From contig DATLUK010000345.1 in assembly GCA_035533195.1 (NCBI GenBank), forward strand, positions 1 through 42,229: a DNA stretch of 42,229 bases. The letters are read 5' to 3'. The DNA is from Acidimicrobiales bacterium. GTDB lineage: Bacteria; Actinomycetota; Acidimicrobiia; Acidimicrobiales; JAJPHE01. A program made the position numbers and the translations under genes. Below, in pieces: positions 4,443 through 42,229 of this stretch. Every line of letters starts with the position of its first letter. The first letter of the stretch is position 1. The notes below the pieces were generated by a model that worked only from the letters and a program-made list of their open reading frames with translations, made no database searches and was not told where the DNA came from.

Positions 4443-4447
4443 TCTGA

Positions 4448-4463: not shown

Positions 4464-4702
4464 ACTTGGCCCGGTTGCTTCGACAGTCTCCCGGGTTGCC
4501 CCACCCGTGACTACGAATTTGTCTCCTCCGATCCGGGCGACCACGTCGCCTGAGCGAACGACCCCGCAGACGCGTTCACCCACCGGCCTAGACCGGGCCG
4601 TTTGGCCCTGGCCCTTCCGAAACCGATGGCGTTAGACTCCGGTTGTAGACACCGCCCCGGACCCGGGCGAGTGGCCAGGCCGAGCCATTAGGCGGGATCG
4701 AG

Positions 4703-6796: not shown

Positions 6797-6878
6797 AGAC
6801 CCAGGAAGCCGGCTCCGGGTCGTCCTGCCATTCCTGCCCGAGGCATTAGGTACTCTCGAACGGCCACAGGGAGAGAAC

Positions 6879-19083: not shown

Positions 19084-19117
19084 GGTGTCGGGCCGAGGCC
19101 CGGACAAGGGGGGATCG

Positions 19118-20680
19118 ATGAGCGGCAGCGAGTGGAGCCTGGGCCGGCTGGCGAGGGACAACGCCGCCGTATTCGAGGATGGGGTGGCCCTCAGCAGCGA
19201 GGCCGGCCAGGTGACCTGGCGGGAGCTGGACGAGCGGTCCAGCCGGGCCGCTCAGGCCCTGGCCGCCGATGGGATCGGCCCGGGCAGCCGGGTGGCCTTC
19301 CTGGACAAGAACACCCCTGAGTTCTTCGACGTCCTGTTGGGGGCGGGCAAGCTCGGAGCGGTCCTGGTGCCGGTCAACTGGCGGCTGGCCCCGGCCGAGA
19401 TGGCCCACATCATCGAGGACGCCGCCGCCACCGTACTGGTCATCGGGTCGGAGTACGCGGCGAGCGTCAAGGAGATCGGCCCCGATCTCACCCACGTCAA
19501 GCGCACGGTCGTGCTCGGTCCCGAATACGAGGACTGGCTGGCCTCCCAGCCGGCCACCGACCCCGGCTACCGCTCCCAGCCCGAAGACGTCGCCATCCAG
19601 CTCTACACCTCGGGCACCACCGGTCTGCCCAAGGGGGCGATGCTGGCCAACGCCAACTTCGGCGCCATCCTCGATCAGGTGGTGGGGCCGTGGCGGCTCG
19701 ACCCGACGTCGGTCAGCGCCGTGGCCATGCCCCTGTTCCACATCGGCGGTTCCGGCTGGGCTCTGGCCGGCATGACGGTTGGAGCCCGCTCGGTGATCGT
19801 CCGGGAGATGGTCCCCGCCGATCTCATCCGCATCTTCGAAACGGAGCAGGTGACCAACGCTTTTCTCGTCCCCGCCGTGCTCCAGATGGTGTGCGCGACG
19901 GATGGGGCGCAGACCGCTGACTTTTCCGCCCTCCGGGCGATCAACTACGGGGCATCCCCGATCACCGATGATGCCCTACAGCGGGCCATCGCCACTTTCG
20001 GATGCGAGTTCATCCAGCTCTACGGACTGACCGAGACCACCGGGGCCATCACCCAGCTCGACGCCGCCGATCACGATCCGGGCGGGGCCCGCTCCCGCCT
20101 GTTGCGTTCGGTGGGCAAGCCCTATCCGTTTGCGCAGATCAGAATCGTCGATCCCGACGATGGTGAGGAGCGGGCTGCAGGGGAGGTGGGCGAGCTGTGG
20201 GCCAAGGGCCCCCAGACCATGAAGGGCTACTGGAACAAGCCCGAGGACACCGCCCGGGTCATCGACGCCGACGGCTGGTTCCGCACCGGGGACGCCGGCT
20301 ACCGTGACGAAGAGGGCTACATCTTCCTGACCGACCGCATCAAGGACATGATCGTGAGCGGCGGGGAGAACATCTACCCGGCCGAGGTGGAGAACGCTCT
20401 GGCCTCCCATCCGGCGGTCGGTGACGTGGCCGTTATCGGCGTGCCCGACGAGCGTTGGGGCGAGACGCCCAAGGCCATGGTGGTCCTGCGGCCAGGGGTC
20501 GAGGGCGGCCCCGACCAGGCCCGCTCCATCATCGACTTCGCCCGGGAGCGCCTGGCCCACTACAAGTGCCCGACCTCGGTGGATTTCATCGACCTGCTGC
20601 CCCGCAACCCGTCGGGCAAAATCCTCAAGCGGGAGCTGCGCGAGCCCTTCTGGGAGGGTCGGGCCCGCCGGGTCAACTGA
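19118..20680 (+). CDS. Long-chain fatty acid-CoA ligase / AMP-dependent synthetase
   Basis: YTSGTTGLPKGA AMP motif, plus the GWFRTGD, ISGGENIYPAEVE and PRNPSGKILKREL blocks. ATG 19118 follows AAGGGGGGATCG. Confidence 0.93.
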   Translation: MSGSEWSLGRLARDNAAVFEDGVALSSEAGQVTWRELDERSSRAAQALAADGIGPGSRVAFLDKNTPEFFDVLLGAGKLGAVLVPVNWRLAPAEMAHIIEDAAATVLVIGSEYAASVKEIGPDLTHVKRTVVLGPEYEDWLASQPATDPGYRSQPEDVAIQLYTSGTTGLPKGAMLANANFGAILDQVVGPWRLDPTSVSAVAMPLFHIGGSGWALAGMTVGARSVIVREMVPADLIRIFETEQVTNAFLVPAVLQMVCATDGAQTADFSALRAINYGASPITDDALQRAIATFGCEFIQLYGLTETTGAITQLDAADHDPGGARSRLLRSVGKPYPFAQIRIVDPDDGEERAAGEVGELWAKGPQTMKGYWNKPEDTARVIDADGWFRTGDAGYRDEEGYIFLTDRIKDMIVSGGENIYPAEVENALASHPAVGDVAVIGVPDERWGETPKAMVVLRPGVEGGPDQARSIIDFARERLAHYKCPTSVDFIDLLPRNPSGKILKRELREPFWEGRARRVN

Positions 20681-21759: not shown

Positions 21760-23148
21760 GTGGGGAACACAGCCGCCTTCTTCGACCTTGACCGCACCGT
21801 GCTCCGTCGGGCCAGCGGACCACTCATAAGTGAGGCCCTGGCCGCCGCCGGCGTGGTGCCCAGCCGGGGGGCCGGGGTGGGCGGCGTCTTCTACAAGATC
21901 TACGACATCGTGGGTGAGACCCTGCCGTCCATGGCCATGGCCCGGGCCGCCGCCCTGATTGCCAGGGGTTGGCCGGCTGACACCGTCCGCCAAGCCGGGC
22001 GGGAGGTGGCGGAGAGGCTGGAGGAACTGGTGGCTCCCTTCGCCCGGCCGTTGATCAAGCATCACCAGGACATGGGCCACAGCGTGGTGCTGGCCACCAC
22101 CACGCCGATGCACCTGATCGAGCCCTTCGCGGCCAAGATGGGCTTCGACGACGTCATTGCCACCCGCTACGCCGAGCGCGACGGTGCATTCACCGGGGCT
22201 CTGGAGGGCGAGTTCGTCTGGGCCCGGGGCAAGCTGGCCGCCGTGCGGCGCTGGGCCGGTGCCCACAACGTGGACATGTCGGACAGCTTCGCCTACTCGG
22301 ACAGCTTCTACGACCTGCCCCTGCTCGGTGCCGTCGGCCATCCGGCGGCCGTCAATCCCGATCCCCGCCTGCTGGCCTACGCCACCTTGCGGCGCTGGCC
22401 GGTGCTCAACCTGGATGCTCCTCCGGGAGTGGTGAAGGTGGCCGGGGTCGAGTTGATGGACATGGTCCGCTGGGTGTCCAACCCGGCGTTCGTGCCCTTC
22501 GCCCGCTTCGACATCGAAGGGGCCGAGCACATTCCGTCCACCGGGCCGGTCATCGTGGTCTCCAACCACCGCTCCTACTTCGACTTCGTGGCCATGGGCA
22601 TGGTCGTGCTCGGCCGGGGCCGGAACCTGCGCTTCCTGGGCAAGAAGGAGGTCTTCGACGCCCCCCTCATCGGCTCGCTGGCGTCGGCCGCGGGCGGCAT
22701 CCGGGTGGATCGGGGCACGGGCAGCAGCCAGCCTCTGGAGGCCGCCGCCGCCGCCCTCGAAGGCGGGGAGGCGGTGGCCATCCTTCCCCAGGGCACTATT
22801 CCCCGGGGCAAGGACTTCTTCGAGCCCAAGCTGGTGGGCAAGACCGGGGCTGCCCGCCTGGCCGCCATGACCGGCGCTCCGGTCGTTCCCATCGGGCTGT
22901 GGGGCACTGAAGAGGTGTGGCCGCGGCGGATGCGGGTACCCCGTATCCATCAGGTGCTCAAGCCGCCCAGGATCCGCGTCCGGGTCGGCCCGCCCGTGGC
23001 TCTGTCGGGAGCGGATCCCCACGCCGACACCGAGGCCATCATGAAGGCGATCACCGAGCTACTGCCGCCCGAGGCCCGGCGTCGGCGTCGGCCTACCCCT
23101 GAACAGATCGCCATGGCCACTCCCGCCAACGCGCGGGTCGAGGCCTGA
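21760..23148 (+). CDS. HAD-IB hydrolase / lysophospholipid (PlsC-type) acyltransferase fusion protein
   Basis: N-terminal HAD motifs FFDLDRTVL, GKLAAV and YSDSFYDLPLL are present. The C-terminal acyltransferase carries NHRSYFD (HX4D) and PQGTIPRG motifs. It is divergent from the LysR gene across a 40-nt gap. Confidence 0.88.
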   Translation: MGNTAAFFDLDRTVLRRASGPLISEALAAAGVVPSRGAGVGGVFYKIYDIVGETLPSMAMARAAALIARGWPADTVRQAGREVAERLEELVAPFARPLIKHHQDMGHSVVLATTTPMHLIEPFAAKMGFDDVIATRYAERDGAFTGALEGEFVWARGKLAAVRRWAGAHNVDMSDSFAYSDSFYDLPLLGAVGHPAAVNPDPRLLAYATLRRWPVLNLDAPPGVVKVAGVELMDMVRWVSNPAFVPFARFDIEGAEHIPSTGPVIVVSNHRSYFDFVAMGMVVLGRGRNLRFLGKKEVFDAPLIGSLASAAGGIRVDRGTGSSQPLEAAAAALEGGEAVAILPQGTIPRGKDFFEPKLVGKTGAARLAAMTGAPVVPIGLWGTEEVWPRRMRVPRIHQVLKPPRIRVRVGPPVALSGADPHADTEAIMKAITELLPPEARRRRRPTPEQIAMATPANARVEA

Positions 23149-26107: not shown

Positions 26108-28375
26108 ATGCCTGCGGTAACCGCGATCACCCCCGTCGAACTCATCGAGGCTGTCTACGCCCGCCTGGCCGAGCGGGTCGAGATCGGCCGGCGCCGTCTG
26201 GGCCGTCCCCTCACCCTTACGGAAAAGATCCTCTTCAACCACCTGGCCGATCCGGAGGGTCAGGAACTGGAGCGGGGTCGCACCTACTCCGAGTTGTACC
26301 CCGATCGGGTGGCCATGCAGGACGCCACCGCCCAGATGGCCCTCCTTCAGTTCATGACCGCCGGCCTGGACCGGGTGGCGGTCCCCTCCACCGTCCACTG
26401 TGACCACCTCATCTCCGCCCGGGTGGGGGCCGAGGCGGATCTGGCCGTGGCCGAGGAAACCAATGCCGAGGTATATGGCTTCCTGCGCAGCGTGTCGGCC
26501 CGCTACGGCGTGGGCTTCTGGAAGCCGGGCTCGGGGATCATCCACCAGGTCGTGTTGGAGCAGTATGCCTTCCCCGGCGGGATGATCATCGGCACCGACA
26601 GCCACACCCCCAATGCCGGGGGCCTTTCCATGGTCGCCATCGGTGTCGGCGGCGCCGACGCCGTGGACGTGATGGTGGGCGGGACCTTCGGGGTGCGTTG
26701 GCCCCGCCTCATCGGCGTGCGCCTGACGGGAGAGCTCAACGGCTGGACCGCCCCCAAGGACATCATCTTGAAGGTGGCCCAGATCCTCACCGTCAGGGGC
26801 GGCACCGGCGCCATAGTCGAGTACTTCGGGCCCGGCGCCGACGGCATCAGCGCCACAGGCAAGGCCACCATCTGCAACATGGGCGCCGAGATCGGTGCCA
26901 CCTGTTCGCTCTTTCCTTATGACAACCACTCGGCCCTGTATCTCAAGTCCACGGGCCGGGAGGCCTACGCCGATCTGGCCGACCGGGCGGCCGAACACCT
27001 GAAGGCCGACCCCGAGGTGGACTCGGATCCGAAGCGCTTCTTCGATGAGGTAATCGAAATCGACCTATCCACCCTCGAGCCGCACATCGTCGGACCCCAC
27101 ACCCCCGATCTGGCCCGCCCGGTCTCCGCCATCGGCGCCGAGGCCAAGGCCAACGGCTGGCCCGTTGAGCTGTCCGACTGCCTGGTCGGCTCCTGCACCA
27201 ACTCCTCCTACGAGGACATCACCCGGGCCGCCTCTGTCGCCCGCCAGGCCTCTGCCCGCGGCCTGCGGGCCCGAGTGCCCCTCTTGGTCACTCCGGGTTC
27301 GGAGCGGGTGCGGGCCACCATCGAACGCGACGGCCTGCTGGCCGACCTCGAGGCCATCGGTGCCACTGTGCTGGCCAACGCCTGCGGCCCCTGCATCGGT
27401 CAATGGGACCGGGAGGACGTGGCCGAGGGCCAGGTCAACTCCATCCTCACCTCCTACAACCGGAACTTCCCCAAGCGCAACGACGGCAGCGCCTCCACCC
27501 TCGCCTTCATCGCCTCCCCCGAGACGGTGGTCGCCTACGCCCTGGCCGGCACCCTGGACTTCAATCCGCTCACCGACGAGTTGGACGGAGGCCTGCTATC
27601 GGCCCCCGTCGGTGAGGAACTCCCATCGGCCGGCTTCGAATCCGGTGAGGCTGGCTTCATCGCCCCTCCCGACGACGGCTCCGATGTGGCCGTCGACGTG
27701 CATCCGAGCAGCACCCGTCTGCAGCTGCTCGAGCCCTTCGCCCCCAACCCCGAGGCCGAGCTGGACGACCTGCCCATCCTGTTGAAGGCCAAGGGCAAGA
27801 CCACCACCGACCACATCTCCGCCGCGGGCCCGTGGCTGCGTTACCGGGGGCATCTGGAGAACATCTCCTCCAACCTGTTCCTCTCCGCCACCAACGGATT
27901 CACCGGTGAGTCAGGCATCGGCCGCTGCCCGGTCCACGGTACGCCCGAGGCTTTCCCCGAGTGCGCCAAGCACTGCCGGGAGGCGGGGGTGGACTGGGTG
28001 GCCATCGGTGATGAGAACTACGGGGAAGGGTCTTCGCGCGAGCACGCCGCCATGGAGCCCCGTTTCATGGGGGCCCGAGCCATCTTCGCCCGTTCTTTCG
28101 CCCGCATCCACGAGACCAACTTGAAGAAGCAGGGCGTGTTGGCCCTGACCTTCTCCGACCCGGGCACGTGGGACAAGATCGGGGAGCAGGACCGCATCTC
28201 GATCCTCGGCCTCGACCAGCTGGCCCCGGACAAGCCGGTCGCCTGTCGCATCACCCATCCCGACGGCAGCACCGAGGACTTCGGGGCCACCCACACCATG
28301 TCCCCCGAGCACATTGCCTGGTACCGGGCCGGTTCGGCTCTCAACCTCATCCGCCGCCAGACAACCACCGGCTAG
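26108..28375 (+). CDS. acn: Aconitate hydratase, mitochondrial-type (~755 aa)
   Basis: ATG 26108 follows AAGGAGGTTCCC. Conserved blocks, recalled from memory, match ACO2-type aconitase along the whole length: [51 protein letters not shown] and [15 protein letters not shown]. Confidence 0.97.
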
Positions 28376-28376
28376 C

Positions 28377-28454
28377 ACGGCTCGGCCCGTGGAAGAGGAG
28401 CGCCCTTCCGTTACGGCCCAACGGGTGGCCGCCCGCCTTCCAGGCCCGAGCCGT
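28377..28454 (+). terminator. GC-rich multi-hairpin region directly after the aconitase stop codon
   Basis: The 9-nt arms ACGGCTCGG (28377-85) and CCGAGCCGT (28446-54) enclose two local hairpins. These are GGAAG...CTTCC (28391-28409) and CCGTT...AACGG (28408-28424). There is no U tract. Confidence 0.3.
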
Positions 28455-28659
28455 CTAAGTCGTCGCGCCGCTGCGGGCGTGCCGCTCGGGCCGATAGATG
28501 CGACTCAGACGCACCCACGATTTTGATTACAAACGTGTTGTTGAACGAACGCGATTTCACCACTACAAGACAAAGTTCAAGATTTTGGGGTGTCCGTTCA
28601 AGTTGCATCTCTCGATGCGGCCCACTCTTGGTGACCATCCGGAAGGGATGAACGCCGAG

Positions 28660-28725
28660 GGCGCGACCCGGACGAGCTGGCGGCGCGACCAGGGCGCTCT
28701 GGCGGCGCGACCCGGACGAGCTAGC
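28660..28725. repeat. Three tandem 22-bp units beginning GGCGCGACC
   Basis: The units are GGCGCGACCCGGACGAGCTGGC, GGCGCGACCAGGGCGCTCTGGC and GGCGCGACCCGGACGAGCTAGC. Units 1 and 3 share 19 identical nt. The array ends 2 nt before the PlsC stop codon (28728-30). Confidence 0.8.
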
Positions 28726-28727
28726 AG

Positions 28728-29729
28728 CTAGCGGCGTGACCAGGGGGTGTCGGAGCCGGCGCCGGGCGAGGAGGTGGCCCGTCGGTTCCGGTTGGTGGCC
28801 GGCGGGCGGGCCCAGGATCGGCGCCAGGGCGACACATCGGGTCCGGAGAGGGAGGGCGAGAGGCCGGCGGCGGCCCTTCGCCGGGCTTGCCACCAGTCGG
28901 TGCGGAACTCGTCGGCCAGTGCCGCCACGGATGCCTCCAAGCGCTGGGCCACCTGGCGGGAGTCGTCGCCGGGGCCGGGTGTGATCGGGCTCCCAAGGCT
29001 CACGGCGGTGGGGCCGGGCCGGAGCCGGCCGGTCCCCTTGGGCAGGGCCTTGACGGTGCCGGCCACGTGGATCGGGACCAGCGGCACGCCGGTGCGTACG
29101 GAGAGGTAGCCGGCGCCGGCGGAGAAGGTCTGGCCCCAGCCGTCGGTGCTGCGGCCGCCCTCGGGGTAGATGAGGATGCTCCATCCGGCATCCAAGAGCT
29201 CGGCGGCCAGGTCCAGGAAGCGGCGGCTGACCTTGGTGCGCTCGATCGGGATGGCGGCCAGGGAGAAGGCGAAGATGGCGCCTTTGAGGCGGGTGTCAAA
29301 GAAGTAGTCGGCGGCGCCGGCCACGACCATGTGGTGGCGAAAGCGGCGGGGCAGCACAGAAAGGAGCAGGGGAGTGTCCAGGTGACTGGAGTGGTTGGCT
29401 GCAAAGATCACCGGTCCCTTCACCCCATCCAGCCGGTCGGTCCCCTCGACGACGGGGGGGATGATGCCGTGGACCAGGGGCCGGATGACCCCGTCGAGCA
29501 CGGCGGCCCGGGCCACCCGGACGCCGTAGCGGCGGGCCCAGTCCGTCTCATAGTCGCTGCCCGTCCGGCTCTCGGGGGGCGGCATGGGAATGGCGGTGGG
29601 CCAGTTGGCCGGGGCCCAGGGGAAGCGGCTGGGACGGCGGGGGACACGCAGGCGGGGCAGCCGGTCGGACAACCGATCACCGAGGCGGTCGGCCAGGGCG
29701 TCGGAGAGCTTGTCGGACAGTCCGCTCAC
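28728..29729 (-). CDS. PlsC-type 1-acyl-sn-glycerol-3-phosphate acyltransferase family protein
   Basis: FAANHSSHLDTPLL (HX4D) and IYPEGGRS motifs are present. The GTG start overlaps the upstream stop codon (GTGA at 29726-29). Confidence 0.88.
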   Translation of the reverse strand: MSGLSDKLSDALADRLGDRLSDRLPRLRVPRRPSRFPWAPANWPTAIPMPPPESRTGSDYETDWARRYGVRVARAAVLDGVIRPLVHGIIPPVVEGTDRLDGVKGPVIFAANHSSHLDTPLLLSVLPRRFRHHMVVAGAADYFFDTRLKGAIFAFSLAAIPIERTKVSRRFLDLAAELLDAGWSILIYPEGGRSTDGWGQTFSAGAGYLSVRTGVPLVPIHVAGTVKALPKGTGRLRPGPTAVSLGSPITPGPGDDSRQVAQRLEASVAALADEFRTDWWQARRRAAAGLSPSLSGPDVSPWRRSWARPPATNRNRRATSSPGAGSDTPWSRR

Positions 29730-31315
29730 GTGACCTCGGCCATGATCATGGGCGGGTTGTGCAGGTGGGTGATCGAGGGGTGGGGCCCCACTACGTCACG
29801 CGCCATTTCCAGTGCGTCGGACAGGGTAGAGGCGGACTTGAAGCCGAGTCGGTGCACAGCGGCACTGTCCCCGCCCACGATGATCACCCGGCCCAGGTGG
29901 GCCAGCGCGTGCGCGCCCCAGTACCACATGTAGAAGGGATGAACGCCGTGGTAGGCGTGGCCGGTGCGGTACAGGTGTATGTACCAGGGATCGGTGGCGA
30001 AGCTCTCCTCGTAGCGGGTCTCGATCTCCTTGGGATCGGTGGTGTCGGAGAGCACCTGGTCGAAGAAGTCGATGTAGCTGGGATGAAAGACCGGGTCGAA
30101 CGCCCAGGGCGTCGGGTGGGACATGATTACCACGCCCCCCTCACGCACCAGCGGTTTGTTCCGGTACATGTTGAAGAAGTAGCCCAGGCCCAGGCACATG
30201 ACGAGGATGGGATTCATGACCGAATTGACGTTGTAGGGGCAGATGTAGGGCAGACCCATGGTCAGAACGTCGGCCTGCCCTTCCACCGGGATCAGCTGCT
30301 CGCGCAGCACCTGCTCGGTGGTGGCGGCGTGAACGGCTTCGACTTCCCCGGCTTGCACGCTGGTGAGACCCATGGGCGACCGCATCGAATTGAAGATGTT
30401 CCGCTTGATCCGCTCGGGGGTGCGGTTCAATGAGGCGGACACGGCCAGGAAGGCGGCCCGGTCCCGCAGGCTCCATTCCCACTCCCGCTTGGCCAGGAAG
30501 CTGAACTGCTCCGGGAACGGATCGTTGTTGACGGTCGTCTCGATCTGGAAGACCTTGACGCCCGAGGCGGCTATGAGCCGGCCCATGCGCCAGTTGGAGG
30601 AGTGCAGCTCGCTGTGGCGCTGGTCCATGAAGGAGCGGGAGTGCTGCATGGTGTGGACGTTGTGGTGGTGCCGGAGGCTCTTGTAGCTGGCCAGTCCGGT
30701 GGCGACGCTCTTATGGCCGCCGTCCATGGCCACCAGGTTGATGTTGACGTAGACCAACAGGTCGCTGGTGGCGGCCCGCTTGTTGATCTCGACGTCCTCG
30801 CCCTGGTCGGTGAGGCCAAGATGGATGAGATTCGCGGGATCCTCGGCGTCGTGCTGCTGGAGCAGGCCATGGGGAGCGAAGGCGTCGTAGATCCGGTCAC
30901 CCAGGGCGTGGCGCAGCTCGGACTCGGTCATGCGCCGGTGCAGGGCCAGAGCGGCTATGAGGACCACGTCGTCGACGCCGGCGGTGGCAGCCTGATCGAG
31001 GACGGCCTCGATGACTCGCTGGCGGATATCCGGTGCCCGCATGGGGGGAAGAGGAAGGGAGACGTCATCGAAGGCGATGGTGAGCTTCATGCCTGCGCGG
31101 AGCAGGGCCGAGAGCGGAGCGCTGTCGCCCATCGGGTTCTCCACGGCTTGGCGGATGGCGAAGTCGGGGTCCTCGATGGGTTCGAAGGGCTCGGCCGGAT
31201 AGACGATGCGGGACCCGGCTGGCAGCCGTTCGAGGCGGAATCCCTCTCCGTGCCACATCAACGTCGGCGGGGTGGACCGGTCGACGTCGAGGACGAATCC
31301 GGGACGGGGGCTCAT
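29726..31315 (-). CDS. LarA-like (lactate racemase / DUF2088 family) protein
   Basis: 529 aa. ALALHRRMTESE corresponds to the LarA ATGxHR His block. MDGGHKSVATG corresponds to GGRKS with the cofactor-tethering Lys, and a His lies 16 residues after that Lys. The start overlaps the upstream stop codon (ATGA at 31312-15). Confidence 0.72.
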   Translation of the reverse strand: MSPRPGFVLDVDRSTPPTLMWHGEGFRLERLPAGSRIVYPAEPFEPIEDPDFAIRQAVENPMGDSAPLSALLRAGMKLTIAFDDVSLPLPPMRAPDIRQRVIEAVLDQAATAGVDDVVLIAALALHRRMTESELRHALGDRIYDAFAPHGLLQQHDAEDPANLIHLGLTDQGEDVEINKRAATSDLLVYVNINLVAMDGGHKSVATGLASYKSLRHHHNVHTMQHSRSFMDQRHSELHSSNWRMGRLIAASGVKVFQIETTVNNDPFPEQFSFLAKREWEWSLRDRAAFLAVSASLNRTPERIKRNIFNSMRSPMGLTSVQAGEVEAVHAATTEQVLREQLIPVEGQADVLTMGLPYICPYNVNSVMNPILVMCLGLGYFFNMYRNKPLVREGGVVIMSHPTPWAFDPVFHPSYIDFFDQVLSDTTDPKEIETRYEESFATDPWYIHLYRTGHAYHGVHPFYMWYWGAHALAHLGRVIIVGGDSAAVHRLGFKSASTLSDALEMARDVVGPHPSITHLHNPPMIMAEVT

Positions 31316-32544
31316 GCGCTCCTCCAGGTTGGGCGGCGGGAGGCCGGCCGCAGATCGAAAACCACTTTGACAGCTCCTAGTCGCCCGGCCGCGGAGGCAT
31401 GGGCGATGGCCTCGGGGAAGCGGTCGAGGGGATAACGGGCACCGACCAGCTGGCCGAGGCCGGCCTCAGCCACCAGTTCGAAGGCGAGATCGAAGGTGCG
31501 GGCGGGGGCCCGTCCCGGCACTGACTCCAACCCATAGGCGTAGGCGCCGCTCAGGGACACCTCCCGGTTCCAGAGCGATGTGAGGTCGAGCTTCACCGTG
31601 CCGGGCATTCCGGCCAGCACCACCCGGCCCTTGGGCCGGACCATGGACAGAGCGGAATCGATACTTTCGGCGTTGCCGACGCAGTCGATGACCACGTCGG
31701 CCCCACCGGTCAGTACGGCTCCGTTGGCGAGGGAGCGGGTGTGGCGGCGCACGCCCCGGACCAGGCCATCGGGGTCGAGCACCTGGTCGGCGCCCAGGGA
31801 GGCGGCCAGCCGGCACTGCTCGGGATGCTTGGCCCCGGCCAGCAGGAGAGCGGGGGGAAGGAAACGGCGCAGGGCAGCTATGACGGTCAGCCCGAGGGTG
31901 CCGGCGCCGATCACTGCCACCGTGGCGGCGGACAGGCCAGGGCCGGAGAGGTCGGGATCGGCCGCGGCCAGGGCCGCATGGATGCCGCAGGCCGTGGGTT
32001 CGACCATCACCGCCTCTTCATCGGACATGGAGTCGGGTACGAGATGAATCTGGGATCGATGGGCGACCAGGGAGGAGGACCAGCCCCCTCCGGTGTCGGA
32101 GCAGTAGCCGGTCTGCAGCCCGGGCTTGAGATGGCCGTAGGCAACCCGCTCGCAGTTGCCGGTGTGCCCGCCTGCGCAGGCGTCACAGAGCGGGGCGATC
32201 CCCCGGGCGGTGCAGCCGAGCACCGGCTCGATCACCACTCGGGCGCCATCATCGGGTCCCCCGTCCGCCAGCTCACCCACCACTTCGTGGCCCGGAACGA
32301 ATGGGAAGCTGACGATGGGCTCGAAATAGCGGGAGCTGTGTCCTTCGACGGTGGCCAGGTCGGAACCACAGATACCGGCCAGGATGGGCGAGACGCGCCG
32401 CCAATCCGGGCCGGGGAGGGCCGGCTCTTCCACCTCGGTGAGGTGCAGAGGCCCGAGGCGGGCGGCGCTACCCGGAGCCACCGAGGACGCCACCCGCGCC
32501 GCGGCGTAGCGGGGGAGGGAGCGTTCGAAGAGGAGGGCTTTCAT
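31312..32544 (-). CDS. Zinc-dependent medium-chain alcohol/polyol dehydrogenase
   Basis: ATG 32544 (MKALLF...) overlaps the upstream stop codon (ATGA). Catalytic zinc ligands are GICGSD and PGHEVVG. The structural zinc Cys cluster is CDACAGGHTGNC, and the Rossmann motif is VIGAGTLG. Confidence 0.9.
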   Translation of the reverse strand: MKALLFERSLPRYAAARVASSVAPGSAARLGPLHLTEVEEPALPGPDWRRVSPILAGICGSDLATVEGHSSRYFEPIVSFPFVPGHEVVGELADGGPDDGARVVIEPVLGCTARGIAPLCDACAGGHTGNCERVAYGHLKPGLQTGYCSDTGGGWSSSLVAHRSQIHLVPDSMSDEEAVMVEPTACGIHAALAAADPDLSGPGLSAATVAVIGAGTLGLTVIAALRRFLPPALLLAGAKHPEQCRLAASLGADQVLDPDGLVRGVRRHTRSLANGAVLTGGADVVIDCVGNAESIDSALSMVRPKGRVVLAGMPGTVKLDLTSLWNREVSLSGAYAYGLESVPGRAPARTFDLAFELVAEAGLGQLVGARYPLDRFPEAIAHASAAGRLGAVKVVFDLRPASRRPTWRSA

Positions 32545-34865
32545 CGCCGTGCCCTTCCGGCCAGGCGCGGGGCGAGGGGTAGCAGCGGCGTCGAATAGCC
32601 GGGCGCCTTGGGCCACTCCTCGGTGTGCCAGCCCCGCTTGCGGGCGATGGTGGCCAGCTTGACCTCGGGGTTGACGGCCACGGGATGGCCGGCGGCTTCG
32701 AGCATGGGCAGGTCGCTGGCCGAGTCGGCATAGGCCACTGACTCCTCCAGGTCCAAGCCGTGGGCCCGGGCGTAGTCGGCCATGATCTGGGCGCGGGCCT
32801 CACCGGTGGGCGGCCCTTGCTCCAACTCACCGGTCAGGCGGCCGGCGCGGATCGAGAGGCGGGCGCAGATCACTTGATCGAAGAGATCCTGGAAGGGTTC
32901 GACGATTATGTCCAGGGCGCCGGTGATGAGCAGGGTCTTGTGCCCGAGGGCGCGATGCTGGCGGACCCGGCGGATGCCGTCGGGGAAGGACTTGGCCAAG
33001 AGGAGGGTGTGGAACAGCTCGTGAGCCTCGGCCCGGAGCTCCTCGACGCCGACGCCTTCGTAGCGGCGGTAGAAGTGGCGTAGGAAGTCGCCCCGGTCCT
33101 TGCGGTCCAGCGACAGGAGGGCCGGGCCTTCGCGCAGGGTCCGCACGGTGAAGCCGAGACGGTCGCGGTCTTTCATGCGCCGGGTGGCCAGCCAGGAATA
33201 GGACTCGACCACATTGGAGGCGATGAGGGTGTTTTCCAGATCGAACACGGCCATGTGACGGTCGGGAGAAAGAACGGCGCGCCGCCCACGCTCCTGACGG
33301 TCGGGCGTGCTGCGCCGGCCCGGGGCGGAGCGCACCCGGGCATGGGTGACGATGGAGGGCAGATGGACGCCCTGCACGTAGGAGTCCCACTCCAGGGCGC
33401 GGGGATCGAAAGCGAAGTCCTGACGGTCCTCTTCATCGGTGCGGTCCCAGAGACCGAGCAGACGGTCGACCAGGAAGCGGGCCTCGGTCTCGGTGTAGGC
33501 GCCGTAGAGGCGGACGTAGCCGAGGGCGCGGTCGACCTGGCTCCGTCGTTCCTCCAGGTTGGCCGTCCAGGCGGCCTGCTTGCCCCGCAGCGGGAGACTG
33601 CGGCTGACCTTCTCGGCGGTGGTGAGGGTCCGGTCGAGGCGCTCGAGCTGGCGAGTGACCTTGCCCCGGCCGGGGAAGGCCCAACGGGGTGCCACGATGG
33701 GCTGGCCGTCGCTGTCGTAGAGCGGATGCTCGGCGAAGTAATCCTGAACCAGGTCCACCAACCTCCGGTAGCGCAGGGGGTTGGTCGCGCCCGACGCGAC
33801 CTGGTAGACCGACGGGCCAGCGGGGTCGGGACCGGCGGCGGCCACGGCCAGGATGGCGGCCACCACCAGGTCCACCGGGATGACGTCGACCACGCCCTCG
33901 GGGATCCCGGGGAAGGACTTGAGCAGGCCGCGGGCGTAGGAGATGATCACCGGCTCGGCCATGCGAAAGCCCCGGATCCATCCCGGGCGGGGCTCGGCCA
34001 GGGCGGATTCGATGATGGAGGGGCGCACGATGCTGACCGGGACTTCGCCGCGAGTTTCGAGCAAGGCCCGTTCGCCCAGAGCCTTGGTATAGGGATAGGC
34101 GTCGGGCCAACCCAGCGACTGGGCCCGGGCCACGCCGGCATCGACCATGGCCTTGCTCACCCACTCCTGGCGGATGCGCTCGGTCCGCTCGGCCAGCAGT
34201 GGGACGCCGGCGGCCCCCAGTTCCTGGCGGGCCTGCTTGTGGAAGCGGGCCAGTTGCTCGGGCTCCCGGCTCACCGCTTCCCGGTCGGCCCGGACTCGGC
34301 GGGCGGCATCGACCTCGTTGCGCCAGGACACGTCGGGTGAGAACGGAGTCTCCGAAAGAGGCAGCTCGGGACTGTCGCCCCGGCGGGTGCCGGCCACATA
34401 GGCGGTGGACACGGCAATCAGGTGCCCCGGTGTCCCGGCCCGGCGCATGGCCTCGGCCAGGCGGGAGGGGCCGAGGAGGTTGACCTCCACGGCGGCGTCC
34501 AGAGGCGAGTCGAAGCTGACGCTGGCGGCGGAATGGATGACTGTGTGGCAGCCGGCCAGGACCTCCAGGCCGGCCTCGTCCAGACCCAGTCCGTCCGTCG
34601 CCACGTCTCCGGCCATGACCAGGATCCGGCGGTCGATCTCGGCGTCGAAGCGGTCGCCCCACTCCTGGCGTAAGCGGTCGAAACAGTCGTTGCGGATGAT
34701 CTCGCGTCGGACGCGGTCAGCCGCCCCCCGCCGGCCGGGACGGACCAGAACGGCTACCTCCAGGTCGGGCACGGAGCGCAGCATCCGCTCGATGAGGGCC
34801 GTCCCGAGGAAGCCCGTCCCTCCGGTCAGCCCGATGCGGCGGCCGGCCAGGGCCTCTCTGATCAC
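32541..34865 (-). CDS. Fusion of a fatty acyl-CoA/thioester reductase (NAD_binding_4 SDR) domain with a C-terminal HAD-IB hydrolase domain
   Basis: The N-terminus has LTGGTGFLGTALIERML, HSAASVSF and STAYVAG, the extended-SDR reductase pattern. The C-terminal ~230 aa have HAD-IB blocks VFDLENTL, LITGAL and YADSASDLPMLEAAGHPVAVNP. Confidence 0.85.
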   Translation of the reverse strand: MIREALAGRRIGLTGGTGFLGTALIERMLRSVPDLEVAVLVRPGRRGAADRVRREIIRNDCFDRLRQEWGDRFDAEIDRRILVMAGDVATDGLGLDEAGLEVLAGCHTVIHSAASVSFDSPLDAAVEVNLLGPSRLAEAMRRAGTPGHLIAVSTAYVAGTRRGDSPELPLSETPFSPDVSWRNEVDAARRVRADREAVSREPEQLARFHKQARQELGAAGVPLLAERTERIRQEWVSKAMVDAGVARAQSLGWPDAYPYTKALGERALLETRGEVPVSIVRPSIIESALAEPRPGWIRGFRMAEPVIISYARGLLKSFPGIPEGVVDVIPVDLVVAAILAVAAAGPDPAGPSVYQVASGATNPLRYRRLVDLVQDYFAEHPLYDSDGQPIVAPRWAFPGRGKVTRQLERLDRTLTTAEKVSRSLPLRGKQAAWTANLEERRSQVDRALGYVRLYGAYTETEARFLVDRLLGLWDRTDEEDRQDFAFDPRALEWDSYVQGVHLPSIVTHARVRSAPGRRSTPDRQERGRRAVLSPDRHMAVFDLENTLIASNVVESYSWLATRRMKDRDRLGFTVRTLREGPALLSLDRKDRGDFLRHFYRRYEGVGVEELRAEAHELFHTLLLAKSFPDGIRRVRQHRALGHKTLLITGALDIIVEPFQDLFDQVICARLSIRAGRLTGELEQGPPTGEARAQIMADYARAHGLDLEESVAYADSASDLPMLEAAGHPVAVNPEVKLATIARKRGWHTEEWPKAPGYSTPLLPLAPRLAGRARR

Positions 34866-34908
34866 GCCACTTGCCTACCATCGGCCGCCCTGCAGGGGCG
34901 ACACGGCC

Positions 34909-35574
34909 TCACCGTTTTCGGCCCTTGGCCGTCGGCGGGGTATAGCGCTTGCTGGCCGTCCGGCGCCGGCCCTCGGGCTCGGGCTGGCGACCCCGGGCGG
35001 CCCAGGCCGGCCGCGCGCCGCGGCCTCGCGCCGGCGCCGGCTGGGCAGCCCGGCCGGCCGACCGACCGGCTGAACGGCCTCCGGCGCGGCCGCCGGCACC
35101 GGCGGCGCCGGGTCCCCGCTCGGTGGCCAGGCGCAGCCGCGTGGCCTTGGAGCTGCGGAAGAGGAGCCAGGCCCCCAGGGCGATGTAGAGGAAGCCGAGG
35201 ACCTGGCCCATTCCGAAGGCGGCCAGGAGGCTGACGACGGCGGCCACGGTGCGCCGTCCGTAGCGGGCGGCGGCGGCCAGGAGGACGAATACGGCGATGC
35301 CGATGCTCAGGGTGAGGGCGGCCGAGACGTGAGTGGTCTTGCCCGAGTGGGTCTGGGTGGCCGGGACGAGGAGGAAATAGACGGTGATGCCGAGAGCGAA
35401 GATGGCGCCGCCGTAGACGGCCAGCTGCTCGTTCTGGGTCATGTCCCGACGGAGGCGGCCGGCCAGGCCGGGCCGGGTCACCGGCGCCGGCCCCTCGGCC
35501 AGCTCCTGGTCGGGCTCCTGGTCGGGCTCCTCGCCTGGCTCCGCTCCCTCGGTCCACTCCCCGTCGGTTGGCAC
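34909..35574 (-). CDS. Small polytopic membrane protein with acidic N-tail and Arg-rich C-tail
   Basis: Three to four hydrophobic helices (AVYGGAIFALGITVYFLLV, ALTLSIGIAVFVLLAAAA, VAAVVSLLAAFGMGQVLGFLYIALGAWLLF). It lies 23 nt downstream of the AGPS-like gene and 43 nt upstream of the reductase gene. The start is uncertain. Confidence 0.55.
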   Translation of the reverse strand: MPTDGEWTEGAEPGEEPDQEPDQELAEGPAPVTRPGLAGRLRRDMTQNEQLAVYGGAIFALGITVYFLLVPATQTHSGKTTHVSAALTLSIGIAVFVLLAAAARYGRRTVAAVVSLLAAFGMGQVLGFLYIALGAWLLFRSSKATRLRLATERGPGAAGAGGRAGGRSAGRSAGRAAQPAPARGRGARPAWAARGRQPEPEGRRRTASKRYTPPTAKGRKR

Positions 35575-35597
35575 CCCGACAAGCTACCGGCGGGGCG

Positions 35598-37202
35598 TCA
35601 GGGGTCGATGAGTACGCCCGGGTTGATGATCCCGGCTGGATCGAGGGTGGCCTTGGCCGCCCGCAGCGTCCGGGCGAACAACTCGGGGCGCTGGCGGTCG
35701 TACCAGGGCCGGTGATCCCGGCCGACAGCGTGGTGGTGGGTGATGGTCCCGCCGTTGGCCAGGATGGCCTCGGAGGCGGCGGCCTTGATCTCGTCCCACT
35801 GGCTGATCTCCGAGCCGGGCCGCCCGGGCCCGAGGACGCTGAAGTAGGGGGCGGGGCCGTCGGGATAGACGTGGGTGAAGCGACAGGTGATCCAGCCATC
35901 GCCACAGACCTCACCGAGGGCTTTGGTCACCGCCTCGGTGACTCCGGCGTGCAGGGCGTCGAAACGGTCCCAGGTGCAGGCGGTCTCGAAGGTCTCCACG
36001 ATCGTGGACATGGCCACCAGGGCGTCCCGTCCGTAGGGGGCGCGGATGAAGGCGTTGCGCCAGGCGCCCACGGCGTCGCCGGCTGCGGGTGGCGTATCGG
36101 CGGCGGGGCCGGAGGACCGGGGCCCGTCAGGACAGGCGCCTCCGTGATCGGCGCACAACTCGATGGCCCGGGCCATGGGCCACTCCACGGGGTGGTCGGC
36201 GGATTCGAAGCCCAGTACCAGGAGGTTGACGCCGCCCCCGGTGCCGGCCGACATGGCCGCCTCGGTCTCGTCCAGCAGCCGGCAGTTGGTGGGGTCCAGG
36301 CCGGCCTGAACCACGGCCCGGGTGGCGACCACCGCATCGGCGTAGCGGGCGAAATGTACGGCGGCCGAGGCCCGCCACTGCGGCCGGTCCTGCAGGCGCA
36401 TCCAGGCCTCGGTGATGACCCCGAGGATTCCCTCGGAGCCGAGCAGCAACCGGTCGGGGGAAGGCCCGGCCCCGGAGCCGGGCAGCCGGCGGGACTCGTA
36501 GACCCCGGCGGGGGTGACGGCCCGGATCGACTCGGTGAAGTCATCGATGTGGGTGCGGGCGGTGGCGTAGTGCCCCCCGGAGCGGGTGGCCAGCCAGCCG
36601 CCCAGGCTGGAGAACTCGAAGGACTGCGGGAAGTGGCGCAAAGTCAGGCCCTGGGGCCGGAGGACGTCCTCCAGGGCCGGGCCCAGGATGCCGGCCTGGA
36701 TGCGGGCGGCCCGGGACGTCCTGTCCACTTCCAGCACCTGGTCCAGCCGGCCCAGGTCCATCGACACCACCCCGGCGTGGCCCTGGTCGGGGCACTCGAC
36801 ACCACCGACGACCGAGGAGCCTCCGCCGTAGGGGACGACCAGGACATCGGCTGAAGTGGCCCAGTCGAGGAGGGCGGAGACGGTCGATTCGTCGGGAGGG
36901 AAGGCGACCAGGTCCGGGGGATGGTCGAGCTGACCCCGGAAGCCCCTGACCACATCCCGGTAGGACTTTCCGTAGGTGTGCCCGGCCCGGTCGTAGACGG
37001 CGTCGGAGAAGGCCGCGGCCAGTGCCGCCGGGGGCTGCACGCGGGGACGGGGGAGATCGAGATCCTCGAGACGGGCCGGCCGGGCTACGTCGAAATCGCG
37101 ACCGGGGAAGCGGGCGCGGAAGCCGGCCGCCATCGACTGCATCTGGCGCTCGTCGGGTCCGACGCCCTCGTTGCCCCAGCCCCACCATGACCGCCTTGCC
37201 AT
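35598..37202 (-). CDS. FAD-linked oxidase homologous to alkyldihydroxyacetonephosphate synthase (AGPS)
   Basis: ATG 37202 gives MARRSWWGWGNEG.... AGPS blocks follow: YGKSYRDVVRG, PYGGGSSVVGG, HFPQSFEFSSLGGWLATRSGG, GSEGILGVITEAW, ETFETACTWDRF, CRFTHVYPDGPAPYF and ILANGGTITHHHAVG (the His-His-His loop). The track ORF extends to 38072, but that extension overlaps the amidase gene and is rejected. Confidence 0.82.
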   Translation of the reverse strand: MARRSWWGWGNEGVGPDERQMQSMAAGFRARFPGRDFDVARPARLEDLDLPRPRVQPPAALAAAFSDAVYDRAGHTYGKSYRDVVRGFRGQLDHPPDLVAFPPDESTVSALLDWATSADVLVVPYGGGSSVVGGVECPDQGHAGVVSMDLGRLDQVLEVDRTSRAARIQAGILGPALEDVLRPQGLTLRHFPQSFEFSSLGGWLATRSGGHYATARTHIDDFTESIRAVTPAGVYESRRLPGSGAGPSPDRLLLGSEGILGVITEAWMRLQDRPQWRASAAVHFARYADAVVATRAVVQAGLDPTNCRLLDETEAAMSAGTGGGVNLLVLGFESADHPVEWPMARAIELCADHGGACPDGPRSSGPAADTPPAAGDAVGAWRNAFIRAPYGRDALVAMSTIVETFETACTWDRFDALHAGVTEAVTKALGEVCGDGWITCRFTHVYPDGPAPYFSVLGPGRPGSEISQWDEIKAAASEAILANGGTITHHHAVGRDHRPWYDRQRPELFARTLRAAKATLDPAGIINPGVLIDP

Positions 37203-37269
37203 GAACGGGAGGGTATCCCCGAACAGCCGGCCCGACCCGGTGACGTCCAACCTGCATAGGCTCGCCCGA

Positions 37270-38673
37270 ATGGACTTTCGTAAGGAGACCCTGGCCGGCC
37301 TCGCTGCCCAGGTCCGATCCCGTTCCGTGTCGGCCCGGGAGCTCACCCAGGCGGCCCTGGACCGCATCGAAGAGCTCAACGACCGCATCAACGCCTTCGT
37401 GTCGGTGGACCCCGAAGGAGCCCTGGCCGCCGCCGCGGACATCGATGAGCGGGTGGCCCGGGACGAGGAGGTGGGCGAACTGGCCGGCATCCCCATCGGG
37501 GTCAAGGACCTGGAGGACGCCAAGGGCCTGGTGACCACCAGGGGCTCGGCGGCGTTCTGCGACGCGGGCCCGGCCCGGTCCGACTCGGTCCTCGTGAGCC
37601 GGCTGCGGGCGGCCGGCTGCGTGGTGGTGGGCAAGACCAACACCCCGGAGCTGGGCTGGAAGGGCGACACCGACAACATGGTCTTCGGGGCGACCCGCAA
37701 CCCATGGCGCACGGAGAACAGCCCGGGGGGCTCATCGGGAGGGACGGGGGCGGCGCTGGCCGCCGGGATGATCCCTCTCGGCACCGGCTCGGACGGCGGC
37801 GGCTCCATTCGCATCCCCGCCTCCGCCTGCGGCCTGTCGGGGTTCAAGCCTTCGCTCGGCCGGGTGCCATCCGGGGGCAAGACGCCACCCGGTTGGGGCC
37901 AGCTGTCGACCAAGGGCCCTATGGCCAGGACGGTGGCCGACACCGCGCTGGCCCTGGACGCCGTCATCGGGCCTGACCCGACCGACCTCAACTCTCTGCC
38001 GATGCCGGAACCATCCTGGCTGGGGGCGATCGAGGATGCGCATCTCCCCGCCAAGGTGGTCTGGTCTCCCACCCTCGGTTACGCCGAGGTCGACCCCGAG
38101 GTGCTCGACATCTGTGGCCGGGCCCTCAACATGGTGGCGGACCTGGGGGCCGAGGTGGTCCAGATGGACACGGTCTTCGAGGAGGATCCGGTCGGGTCCT
38201 GGCTGGTCCTCGTGACGGCGGGCAACATCCGTACCCTGGAGCCGTTCCGGGGCACGGAAGTGTGGTCCCGGATCGACCCGGGACTGGTGGAGCAGATGGA
38301 ATGGGGCTCACGCTTGACTGGCGCCGATGTCATCCGGGCCCAGGATGCCTGCCACGCTCTCAACCTCGACCTGGTCGAGATCTTCCATCAGGCCCGGCTG
38401 CTCATCACCCCGACCATGGCCGCCGCCCCCCCGATCAGCGGGGAAGTCGGGACCATCGGAGGGCGCCCGGATCCCAACTGGGTCCGCTTCACCTACCCGT
38501 TCAACATGACCCGGTCACCGGCGGCCACGGTCTGCTGCGGCTTCACCGCCAGGGGCCTGCCCGTGGGCCTGCAGATAGTGGGTCCCCAGCACGCCGACCT
38601 GGTCGTCCTCCGGGCCGCTGCCGCTCTGGAGCGCGCCCTGGATCTCGACGCGGTGGCCCCGGTCGACAACTGA
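37270..38673 (+). CDS. Amidase (amidase-signature family)
   Basis: GIPIGVKD, GKTNTPELG, SPGGSSGGTGAALAAG and GTGSDGGGSIRIPAS signature blocks are present. ATG 37270 lies divergent from the AGPS-like gene. Confidence 0.92.
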   Translation: MDFRKETLAGLAAQVRSRSVSARELTQAALDRIEELNDRINAFVSVDPEGALAAAADIDERVARDEEVGELAGIPIGVKDLEDAKGLVTTRGSAAFCDAGPARSDSVLVSRLRAAGCVVVGKTNTPELGWKGDTDNMVFGATRNPWRTENSPGGSSGGTGAALAAGMIPLGTGSDGGGSIRIPASACGLSGFKPSLGRVPSGGKTPPGWGQLSTKGPMARTVADTALALDAVIGPDPTDLNSLPMPEPSWLGAIEDAHLPAKVVWSPTLGYAEVDPEVLDICGRALNMVADLGAEVVQMDTVFEEDPVGSWLVLVTAGNIRTLEPFRGTEVWSRIDPGLVEQMEWGSRLTGADVIRAQDACHALNLDLVEIFHQARLLITPTMAAAPPISGEVGTIGGRPDPNWVRFTYPFNMTRSPAATVCCGFTARGLPVGLQIVGPQHADLVVLRAAAALERALDLDAVAPVDN

Positions 38674-42059: not shown

Positions 42060-42133
42060 GGGCGTATGGCTCAGTTGGTTAGAGCGCAGCCTTCACACGG
42101 CTGAGGTCACAGGTTCGAGTCCTGTTACGCCCA
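42060..42133 (+). tRNA. tRNA-Val (anticodon CAC)
   Basis: The 74 nt fold as a perfect cloverleaf: GGGCGTA / GCTC-AGTTGGTTA-GAGC / CAGCC-TTCACAC-GGCTG / AGGTC / ACAGG-TTCGAGT-CCTGT / TACGCCC-A. CCA is not fully encoded. Confidence 0.97.
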
Positions 42134-42229
42134 CCGGGCCTGGGAACATCCTCGATTGGCTTCAGCAGTCGACGGCCGCCCTGAGGGCTCTGCATGCCTC
42201 CAATAGACGGATGGGGTCGAGGGCAGTCA

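Follow-up and report, generated by a model that had tools for sequence, protein, structure and literature searches.

The window analysed here is a 42,229-nucleotide stretch of DNA from an Acidimicrobiales bacterium (contig DATLUK010000345.1 of assembly GCA_035533195.1). Six consecutive genes on its minus strand, spanning positions 28728-37202, form in our opinion one translationally coupled operon for the aerobic synthesis of O-alkyl (ether) glycerolipids, a reading that we hold with moderate confidence. The operon would represent a known kind of system, the elb and alkyldihydroxyacetonephosphate synthase (AGPS) genes of aerobic ether-lipid synthesis, here in an actinobacterial arrangement. 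Its homologies suggest that it joins counterparts of both aerobic bacterial ether-lipid systems, elb and AGPS, in one unit. The conserved part of this unit is a cassette of four genes, and AGPS is a loosely linked accessory that was drawn into a compact operon in the lineage of the window. The genes and the adjoining intergenic region are as follows.

35598-37202, minus strand: AGPS-like flavoenzyme, 534 aa, gene 1 of the operon (Pfam FAD_binding_4 and FAD-oxidase_C)
34909-35574, minus strand: small membrane protein, 221 aa
32541-34865, minus strand: fusion of a fatty-acyl reductase (FAR) with a HAD domain (FAR-HAD), 774 aa (NAD_binding_4, Sterile and HAD, the last by TIGR01490)
31312-32544, minus strand: Zn-dependent medium-chain dehydrogenase (MDR), 410 aa (Pfam ADH_N and ADH_zinc_N)
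29726-31315, minus strand: LarA-like protein (LarAH), 529 aa (Lar_N, NF052592)
28728-29729, minus strand: PlsC/AGPAT-type acyltransferase, 333 aa, final gene of the operon (Pfam Acyltransferase)
37203-37269: intergenic region from the AGPS start to the probable start of a divergent amidase gene, the presumed promoter region

Support for this reading comes from Myxococcus xanthus, in which an ether-lipid operon, elbABCDE (MXAN_1531-1527), was described by Lorenzen et al. 2014 (reviewed in PMC9131029). Since elbA is MXAN_1531 and elbE is MXAN_1527 (PMC13012113), MXAN_1529 is elbC, a gene of the ether-lipid operon to whose product no function has been assigned (PMC9131029). The elbD gene is needed for most alkyl and vinyl ether lipids, and the AGPS operon of the same organism, MXAN_1676-1674, accounts for a minor share (PMC9131029). 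The domains encoded by the elb locus (L163) are, in order, Epimerase (ElbA), HAD (ElbB), Lar_N (ElbC), ElbD and Epimerase (ElbE), where ElbD itself has the architecture NAD_binding_4-Sterile-AMP-binding-PP-binding-Acyltransferase. The LarAH of the window is 47% identical to ElbC over 522 aa (1e-178), and ElbC scores 849 bits against NF052592. The FAR domain matches the N-terminus of ElbD (31% over 543 aa, 3e-53), the HAD domain matches ElbB (33% over 210 aa, 5e-35; both pass TIGR01490), and the PlsC-type enzyme matches the C-terminal acyltransferase of ElbD (41% over 126 aa, 2e-23). ElbD, ElbB and ElbD are the sole matches in the elb locus of the FAR, HAD and acyltransferase parts, respectively. 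Because its LarAH, FAR, HAD and acyltransferase parts thus match ElbC, ElbD, ElbB and ElbD, the cassette is an actinobacterial form of the elb cluster with its parts rearranged. Homology of four of the domains to an operon that is implicated genetically lends the ether-lipid reading independent support. The first-pass annotation had proposed the same reading from an AGPS-centred operon; the homology to elb strengthens that proposal, while the centre that it chose gives way to the four-gene, elb-like core.

The layout is in every respect as first described. Three junctions are 4-nt overlaps on the coding strand (ATGA at 32541-44, ATGA at 31312-15 and GTGA at 29726-29), and the remaining two are gaps of 23 nt and 43 nt. 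In all six frames the GC content of third codon positions (GC3, 0.82-0.90) stands against 0.42-0.63 at second positions (GC2), the pattern expected of real genes in a genome with ~70% GC. Pfam and NCBIfam back all of the earlier domain calls, and FAR, acyltransferase, dehydrogenase and phosphatase-like functions are indeed present in the operon. Scans of positions 28300-37600 for a sigma-70-type promoter consensus found no site, and scans of the same interval for terminators found 3 sites, all inside genes and in a number not above that of shuffled sequences; both are uninformative for a high-GC actinobacterium. An Rfam scan of the window found no riboswitch near the operon.

The distribution of the genes among relatives defines the conserved unit. 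GTDB genomes were scanned with an AGPS profile, which yielded 80 loci with 10-kb flanks, 54-75% identical to the AGPS-like enzyme of the window and drawn from Acidimicrobiia, Solirubrobacterales, Streptomyces, Nocardia, Mycobacterium, Myxococcota, Binatia, Chloroflexota, Proteobacteria and a haloarchaeal metagenome-assembled genome (MAG). The six-gene arrangement occurs in one of these loci, L001, which is also the nearest (75%). When metagenomes were scanned with the LarA-like protein as the centre, the outcome was the reverse: in 37/37 loci with enough flank, FAR-HAD, the Zn-dehydrogenase, LarAH and PlsC form a same-strand group, and AGPS is within reach in only 5/38 cassette loci. Because the cassette is complete throughout the second survey, AGPS accompanies it in this small minority, and 79 of the 80 AGPS loci lack it, the four genes and not AGPS make up the conserved unit. 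For this reason, the earlier view of an operon built around AGPS had to be abandoned. Two relatives, L001 and L085, agree with the window in gene order and strand.

AGPS lies no more than about 10 kb from the cassette in at least nine Acidimicrobiales loci, in several arrangements. An AGPS-centred look-up placed the cassette downstream of AGPS in two long Acidimicrobiales contigs, at a distance of 6.7-7.4 kb that is occupied by unrelated genes, and found no cassette within 10 kb of AGPS in a third. The small membrane protein has homologues in 32 related loci, where they are encoded upstream of the cassette. Relatives usually have a divergent TetR gene between the membrane protein and FAR-HAD, and the window has none. 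In one Acidimicrobiales contig (L165, 18320-21623), LarAH directly follows FAR-HAD with a 4-nt overlap and no Zn-dehydrogenase lies between them; not all versions of the cassette thus require the dehydrogenase.

An amidase gene is a further regular neighbour. In all three long contigs it occurs within a few genes of AGPS on the upstream side, adjacent and divergent in L166 only. More widely (L001, L085, L090, L093, L094, L106-L108 and L164-L166; 61-73% identity), it is found close upstream of AGPS in the opposite orientation, in some cases with small intervening genes; in loci without AGPS it adjoins the membrane-protein gene and flanks the cassette. In the window, the corresponding amidase-signature ORF (37171-38673, plus strand, supported by a Pfam match) overlaps the AGPS start in its longest form.

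The enzyme encoded by the first gene is, to judge from its matches, a genuine homologue of AGPS and closer to it than to dehydrogenases of the GlcD/D-lactate dehydrogenase type. Both the PCMH-type FAD-binding domain (PF01565, 1.3e-26) and the FAD-oxidase C-terminal domain (PF02913, 3.6e-39) are present. As a single sequence it matches Dictyostelium AGPS (2uuu) at 1.5e-72, guinea-pig AGPS (4bby) at 1.9e-56 and D-lactate dehydrogenase at 4e-23; with a profile of 13 homologues these values become 1.6e-90, 1.2e-75 and 1.1e-33, in one alignment over residues 67-536. Identity over ~400 aa is 37% to the Dictyostelium and 32% to the guinea-pig enzyme, and the glcD model of NCBIfam gives 101 bits against a cutoff of 568. 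Three of the blocks that had suggested AGPS in the first place, HFPQSFEFSSLGGW, CRFTHVYPDG and ITHHHAVG, align to solved AGPS structures. Residues R308, R392, T443, Y453 and H489-H491 align with R419, R515, T568, Y578 and H615-617 of the guinea-pig enzyme and are invariant across the 13 homologues. These guinea-pig residues we take to be catalytic (Nenci et al. 2012). The three-histidine loop and the aligned residues are intact. The fourth block, the N-terminal motif W6-W7-G8-W9-G10, whose resemblance to eukaryotic AGPS is putative, is kept among bacterial homologues, and the first ~66 residues fall outside all alignments to PDB chains. Alignments of homologues place the AGPS start at 37202. 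The frame is open further upstream, to 38072, which creates an apparent protein of 824 aa; this and other long ORFs that overlap the real genes in other frames or strands (35598-38072, 34862-35914 and 33433-34662, all on the minus strand, and others) are high-GC artefacts.

The third gene combines a FAR part (aa 13-500, NAD_binding_4 and Sterile) with a HAD-IB part (aa 537-748). The motifs GGTGFLG and YPYTK occur in the former, which has a match at 1.4e-65 to a fatty acyl-CoA reductase of known structure (7eoz); the latter passes TIGR01490 with 106 bits (cutoff 98). In the HAD part (32622-33257), motif I reads FDLENTL, so that Glu occupies Asp+2, and the Lys of motif III is replaced by Arg. 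The pattern FDLE(N/H/Q)TL is found in 49/61 actinobacterial FAR-HAD proteins, the other 12 having no match to it. Both changes are kept across actinobacterial fusions, whereas M. xanthus ElbB is canonical (DVDGT, Lys).

A HAD-IB and PlsC-type pair occurs in the window a second time, in fused form, as a 462-aa protein at 21760-23148 (plus strand). Its HAD part is 39% identical to that of the operon and has a canonical motif I, FDLDRT. The same fusion is found in 15 related loci, where it lies at a distance of ~4 kb from the cassette and has MurT/GatD and a LysR gene next to it.

The dehydrogenase of the operon has GHE and GAGTLG motifs, which were matched by script, and its translation read by eye has the Cys of GICGSD, a block of four Cys for structural Zn, and EPTAC. 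The NCBIfam models that it matches (IolM, idonate 5-dehydrogenase and threonine dehydrogenase) are all far under cutoff, and its best PDB matches are of alcohol, ketose-reductase and threonine dehydrogenase types (1e-15 to 1e-18), so that it resembles polyol and threonine dehydrogenases only weakly. The acyltransferase (Pfam Acyltransferase, 7.5e-20) has HSSHLD (HX4D) and EGGRS motifs and matches Thermotoga maritima PlsC (5kym) at 4.8e-14. It reaches 46 bits against the equivalog TIGR00530 for lysophosphatidic acid acyltransferase, below the cutoff of 103. The small membrane protein has no Pfam or NCBIfam match. It has 3-4 predicted transmembrane helices (hydropathy segments 50-75, 80-106 and 109-139), and while its N-terminus is acidic, its C-terminal tail is strongly basic; its GC3 is 0.90.

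The LarA-like protein had been regarded as an unexplained extra. It is in fact the most conserved member of the cassette, with a median identity to relatives of 76.5% compared with 54-64% for the others, and is the counterpart of ElbC. It scores 895 bits against NF052592, the 'LarAH14/15/16 family' equivalog (cutoff 740), and matches PF09861 (Lar_N) at 2.5e-37; its best PDB match is 9q2u (9e-38). Key residues were placed by alignment to 9q2u together with the published group-14 signature. Those retained are K202, where the cofactor, nickel-pincer nucleotide (NPN), is attached (Lys184), the nickel ligand H218 (His200), the ribose-binding D84 (Asp72) and the catalytic H126 (His108). The second catalytic histidine, His174, is lost: N193 aligns with Asn185 of 9q2u, and group 14 has a gap there (Desguin Dataset S2). 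In the 9q2u alignment the carboxylate/phosphate-binding Arg/Lys is also lost, with L87 at the Arg75 position; the group-14 signature at Arg75, Gln295 and Lys298 is L, gap and N (Desguin 2020, PMC7583248). The protein is probably a nickel-pincer enzyme.

The LarAH groups were defined by Desguin 2020 (PMC7583248), where groups 14 and 15 are labelled 'unknown function'. Group 14 has members in Frankia, Kribbella flavida, Ilumatobacter coccineum and Acidimicrobium ferrooxidans, and its gene neighbours are PlsC (88%), a HAD/SerB-type phosphatase (88%), a COG1063 dehydrogenase (88%) and a thioester-reductase domain (50%) (PMC7583248, Table S1). Group 15, in which MXAN_1529 was placed (PMC7583248, Dataset S2), has as neighbours two SDR 'epimerases', a HAD protein and a long-chain acyl-CoA synthetase (PMC7583248, Table S1). 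The nearest solved relatives of the window protein, 9Q2U and 9Q3J, are single-histidine LarAHs with triose-phosphate/glycolysis gene neighbours, and the ligand bound to a solved single-histidine LarAH was modelled as a phosphorylated compound (PMC12611868). Given the loss of the carboxylate-binding residues, the triose-phosphate context of these relatives and the ever-present HAD domain, we infer that the substrate may be a non-carboxylate, probably phosphorylated, for example acyl- or alkyl-glycerol-3-phosphate.

It should be noted that group 16 consists of Frankia paralogues that also lie beside PlsC and HAD genes and that have Gly instead of the NPN-attachment Lys; in one member, Asn also takes the place of the catalytic His (Desguin 2020, Dataset S2). 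The group 16 copies probably cannot hold the cofactor covalently.

A pathway may be proposed from these components. The analysis establishes the gene structure, the identities of the domains, the conserved catalytic residues, the homology to Elb proteins and AGPS and the conservation of the four-gene core, and the product, the substrates and the order of steps are what we infer. The FAR domain would convert acyl-CoA or acyl-acyl carrier protein to a fatty aldehyde or alcohol, and the PlsC-type enzyme would acylate a triose- or glycerol-phosphate acceptor. AGPS would then exchange the acyl group of acyl-dihydroxyacetone phosphate (acyl-DHAP) for the fatty alcohol to give alkyl-DHAP. The Zn-dehydrogenase could catalyze the keto/hydroxyl redox step at C2 or, alternatively, form the alcohol from the aldehyde. 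For the LarA-family protein we envisage a cofactor-bound hydride transfer at a secondary alcohol, in a lipid intermediate that is not a carboxylate and is probably phosphorylated; the HAD-IB domain would work on the phosphate; and the small membrane protein may anchor or organise the pathway at the membrane. A more specific proposal, which we offer tentatively and would not rely on, is that the whole LarAH14/15/16 family, ElbC included, consists of NPN enzymes that act on a phosphorylated glycerolipid and borrow the C2 hydride of acyl- or alkyl-glycerol-3-phosphate. On the same tentative footing, the transfer would produce the DHAP-level ketone required for acyl-to-alkyl exchange, or else invert the backbone stereocentre.

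Several observations weigh against the ether-lipid reading. Nearly all AGPS loci (79/80) lack any FAR-HAD, LarAH, dehydrogenase or PlsC of the window type within 10 kb, the converse survey brought AGPS within reach of few cassettes, and all juxtapositions of AGPS and cassette come from a single taxonomic order, so that the linkage may in part be an inherited neighbourhood. The AGPS clade of the window (32-37% identical to eukaryotic AGPS) appears to have no assayed member, and the published identity between MXAN_1676 and human AGPS, about 42%, is above that range. For the Elb route itself no chemistry has been worked out, nor has a role of ElbC been put to the test (PMC9131029), and Frankia LarAH14 (Franean1_4168) was inactive on all substrates tried, hydroxyacids including gluconate among them (PMC7583248). 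Unlike ElbD, the six genes encode no AMP-binding or PP-binding domain, the nearest AMP-binding gene being ~8 kb away on the other strand; nor does the operon contain a match to the SDRs ElbA and ElbE, in whose place stands the Zn-dependent MDR. With Glu for the second Asp of motif I, the HAD domain may not be an ordinary phosphatase. The genes for NPN biosynthesis, larB, larC and larE, are not in the 42-kb window, and NPN-biosynthesis genes are not among the recurrent neighbours of the cassette. Finally, we found no paper that links Acidimicrobiia with ether lipids.

Other explanations were weighed as well. The elb-like cassette might make a different FAR-derived lipid, such as a modified lysolipid, wax-ester-like or alkyl/acyl diol lipids, or long-chain lipids based on 1,2-diols that stem from 2-hydroxy fatty acids, with AGPS beside it as part of an inherited chromosomal neighbourhood. 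We consider this unlikely. It is true that AGPS is missing near most cassette loci and the cassette near most AGPS loci; that the amidase, the cassette, MurT/GatD and HAD-PlsC make up a conserved Acidimicrobiales neighbourhood, in which proximity may be vertical; that the known substrates of the LarA superfamily are 2-hydroxy acids (PMC7583248, PMC11770544); and that FAR and an acyltransferase suffice for wax or diol esters. However, the sole homologous cassette studied genetically, elb, is needed for ether lipids (PMC9131029), and in the window, L001 and L085 AGPS is contiguous with the cassette on the same strand, with the TetR gene lost. Moreover, the LarAH lacks equivalents of Arg75, Gln295 and Lys298, which argues against a free 2-hydroxy acid as substrate, and a phosphatase-type domain is always there, which points to a phosphorylated intermediate. 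The TetR gene also bears on another possibility, one that we regard as quite improbable, namely that the operon remodels or salvages existing lipids (lysophospholipids, imported alkylglycerols or a stress-related adjustment of the membrane), with AGPS and the dehydrogenase cycling through the DHAP level. A divergent TetR-type regulator directly upstream of FAR-HAD, as seen in most relatives, is typical of inducible genes responsive to lipids or fatty acids, and the window contains a paralogous HAD-PlsC fusion and a patatin-like phospholipase. Yet a fatty-acyl reductase feeds biosynthesis by making new fatty alcohol, biosynthesis is also where the elb homologues work, and the operon itself includes no gene for a lipase, hydrolase or transporter.

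The dehydrogenase and the LarA-like protein could, in principle, serve soluble hydroxy-acid or sugar-acid metabolism (gluconate, mannonate or idonate) and be merely interleaved with lipid genes. The name 'hydroxyacid isomerase' given by NCBIfam invites this view, as do the existence of gluconate 2-epimerases among LarA homologues (PMC11770544) and the weak best matches of the dehydrogenase, which are to scyllo-inosose and L-idonate dehydrogenases. We give it very little credence and reject it as the main explanation. All the dehydrogenase matches are far under the family cutoffs; LarAH14 has neither the carboxylate-binding residues nor the second catalytic His, and the Frankia LarAH14 is inactive on gluconate and other hydroxyacids. 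The LarAH gene is also coupled on both sides, by the ATGA and GTGA overlaps, and its neighbours are FAR-HAD/MDR and PlsC in 37/37 loci; in M. xanthus they are HAD and ElbD. Synthesis of ether glycerolipids is therefore the reading that we retain for the operon.

Several other features of the window deserve mention. The window is chromosomal, with ~70% GC, and also holds typA/bipA, aconitase and murT/gatD; the nearest homologues of its proteins come from uncultured Acidimicrobiales. A tightly spaced trio on the plus strand (16760-20680), which may be a separate small operon, encodes an MFS transporter (16760-18382), a metallo-beta-lactamase-fold protein (18379-19083, with a 4-nt overlap) and an AMP-binding, acyl-CoA-synthetase-like enzyme (19085-20680). 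ElbD carries out the activation step on its own; here, this last enzyme is the nearest candidate for it. A further lipid-active enzyme, the patatin-like phospholipase (9630-10493, minus strand), adjoins a hydrolase of the S9 prolyl-oligopeptidase family (7612-9600, minus strand). Positions 1-7000 have a GC content of 0.64-0.66, compared with ~0.70, and an ORF GC3 of 0.73-0.78; a GGDEF diguanylate cyclase gene lies at 3216-4442. The sole match of the Rfam and tRNA scans of the window is a tRNA-Val at 42060-42135.

The placement of ElbC and its actinobacterial counterpart in the nickel-pincer LarA family is, in our view, the most instructive outcome. Formation of the ether bond by the main myxobacterial (ElbD) route has been unexplained since 2014. 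If the tentative proposal made above is true, formation of a DHAP-level ketone would be the missing catalysis of the AGPS-independent Elb route; either variant of the proposal would be the first link of the nickel-pincer cofactor with membrane-lipid synthesis, and aerobic ether-lipid synthesis would here be nickel-dependent. Membership of the ElbC-type component in the LarA family is annotated in databases. Our literature searches found no paper that discusses a link between the LarA family and ether lipids, and none in which lactate racemase or DUF2088 is brought together with ether lipids or elbC. For the orphan single-histidine LarA groups 14 to 17, the lipid gene context offers acyl- or alkyl-glycerol-3-phosphate and acyl-DHAP as candidate substrates. 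Aerobic non-isoprenoid ether lipids of soils and sediments are used as biomarkers, and the present reading would add uncultured Acidimicrobiia, which are abundant, Frankia and Kribbella as candidate producers. The compact six-gene version provides a convenient single unit for heterologous expression.

The first-pass annotation knew of no characterised AGPS-centred operon in high-GC Gram-positive bacteria, and our literature searches are consistent with this. The system does have precedents: AGPS and elb operons have been studied genetically in M. xanthus (PMC9131029, PMC13012113), and the gene context of LarAH14 was already contained in Table S1 of Desguin 2020. Compared with the M. xanthus elb operon, the fusions are rearranged in the window: FAR is joined to HAD and the acyltransferase is free-standing, whereas in elb both FAR and acyltransferase lie within ElbD. 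In turn, the elb locus has nothing that corresponds to the Zn-dehydrogenase, AGPS or the membrane protein. The host phylum of the window operon is Actinomycetota.

The second M. xanthus system consists of MXAN_1676 (AGPS), MXAN_1675 (a FAR-GNPAT fusion) and MXAN_1674 (PMC9131029, PMC13012113). As in this operon and in the eukaryotic FAR1/GNPAT/AGPS set, the AGPS homologue of the window is co-encoded with FAR and a glycerolipid acyltransferase. FAR is joined to HAD in the window and to the acyltransferase in MXAN_1675, and the candidate keto-reductase of the window is a Zn-dependent MDR, whereas the AGPS route uses an SDR. The AGPS clade of the window is spread over many phyla with varied neighbours. 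Orthology of this clade to MXAN_1676 cannot be claimed, the Myxococcota loci L013, L023 and L038 having no FAR-acyltransferase fusion downstream.

Another arrangement of the same AGPS clade has a 668-aa FAR-SDR fusion directly upstream of AGPS. It is found in L052, L055, L057, L058, L060, L071 and L074, which are Solirubrobacterales-type MAGs (at positions of about 7.5-12.7 kb in each locus), and in L054, a Mycobacterium MAG; since the fusion adjoins AGPS in all eight loci, the association of FAR with AGPS is supported independently of the window. In 5/8 of these loci a gene for a UbiA-family prenyltransferase lies directly downstream of AGPS. The AGPS of the FAR-SDR/AGPS/UbiA trio is 56-59% identical to that of the window and likewise has FAR alongside on the same strand, but LarAH, HAD and PlsC genes are lacking and the reductase is joined to an SDR. 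The acyl/alkyl-DHAP reductase of eukaryotes is an SDR, and for this reason the trio fits the same pathway logic. It may be regarded as a different candidate ether-lipid gene set.

With respect to the LarA family, the LarAH of the window shares with LarAH14 and with 9Q2U and 9Q3J the NPN-binding Lys, the nickel-binding His, the ribose-binding Asp and one catalytic His. It also shares with them the loss of the second catalytic His and of the usual substrate-binding residues. The difference lies in the genomic context: the solved LarAHs, of group 17, occur amid glycolysis/triose-phosphate genes and are thought to act on sugars, whereas groups 14, 15 and 16 occur amid lipid genes.

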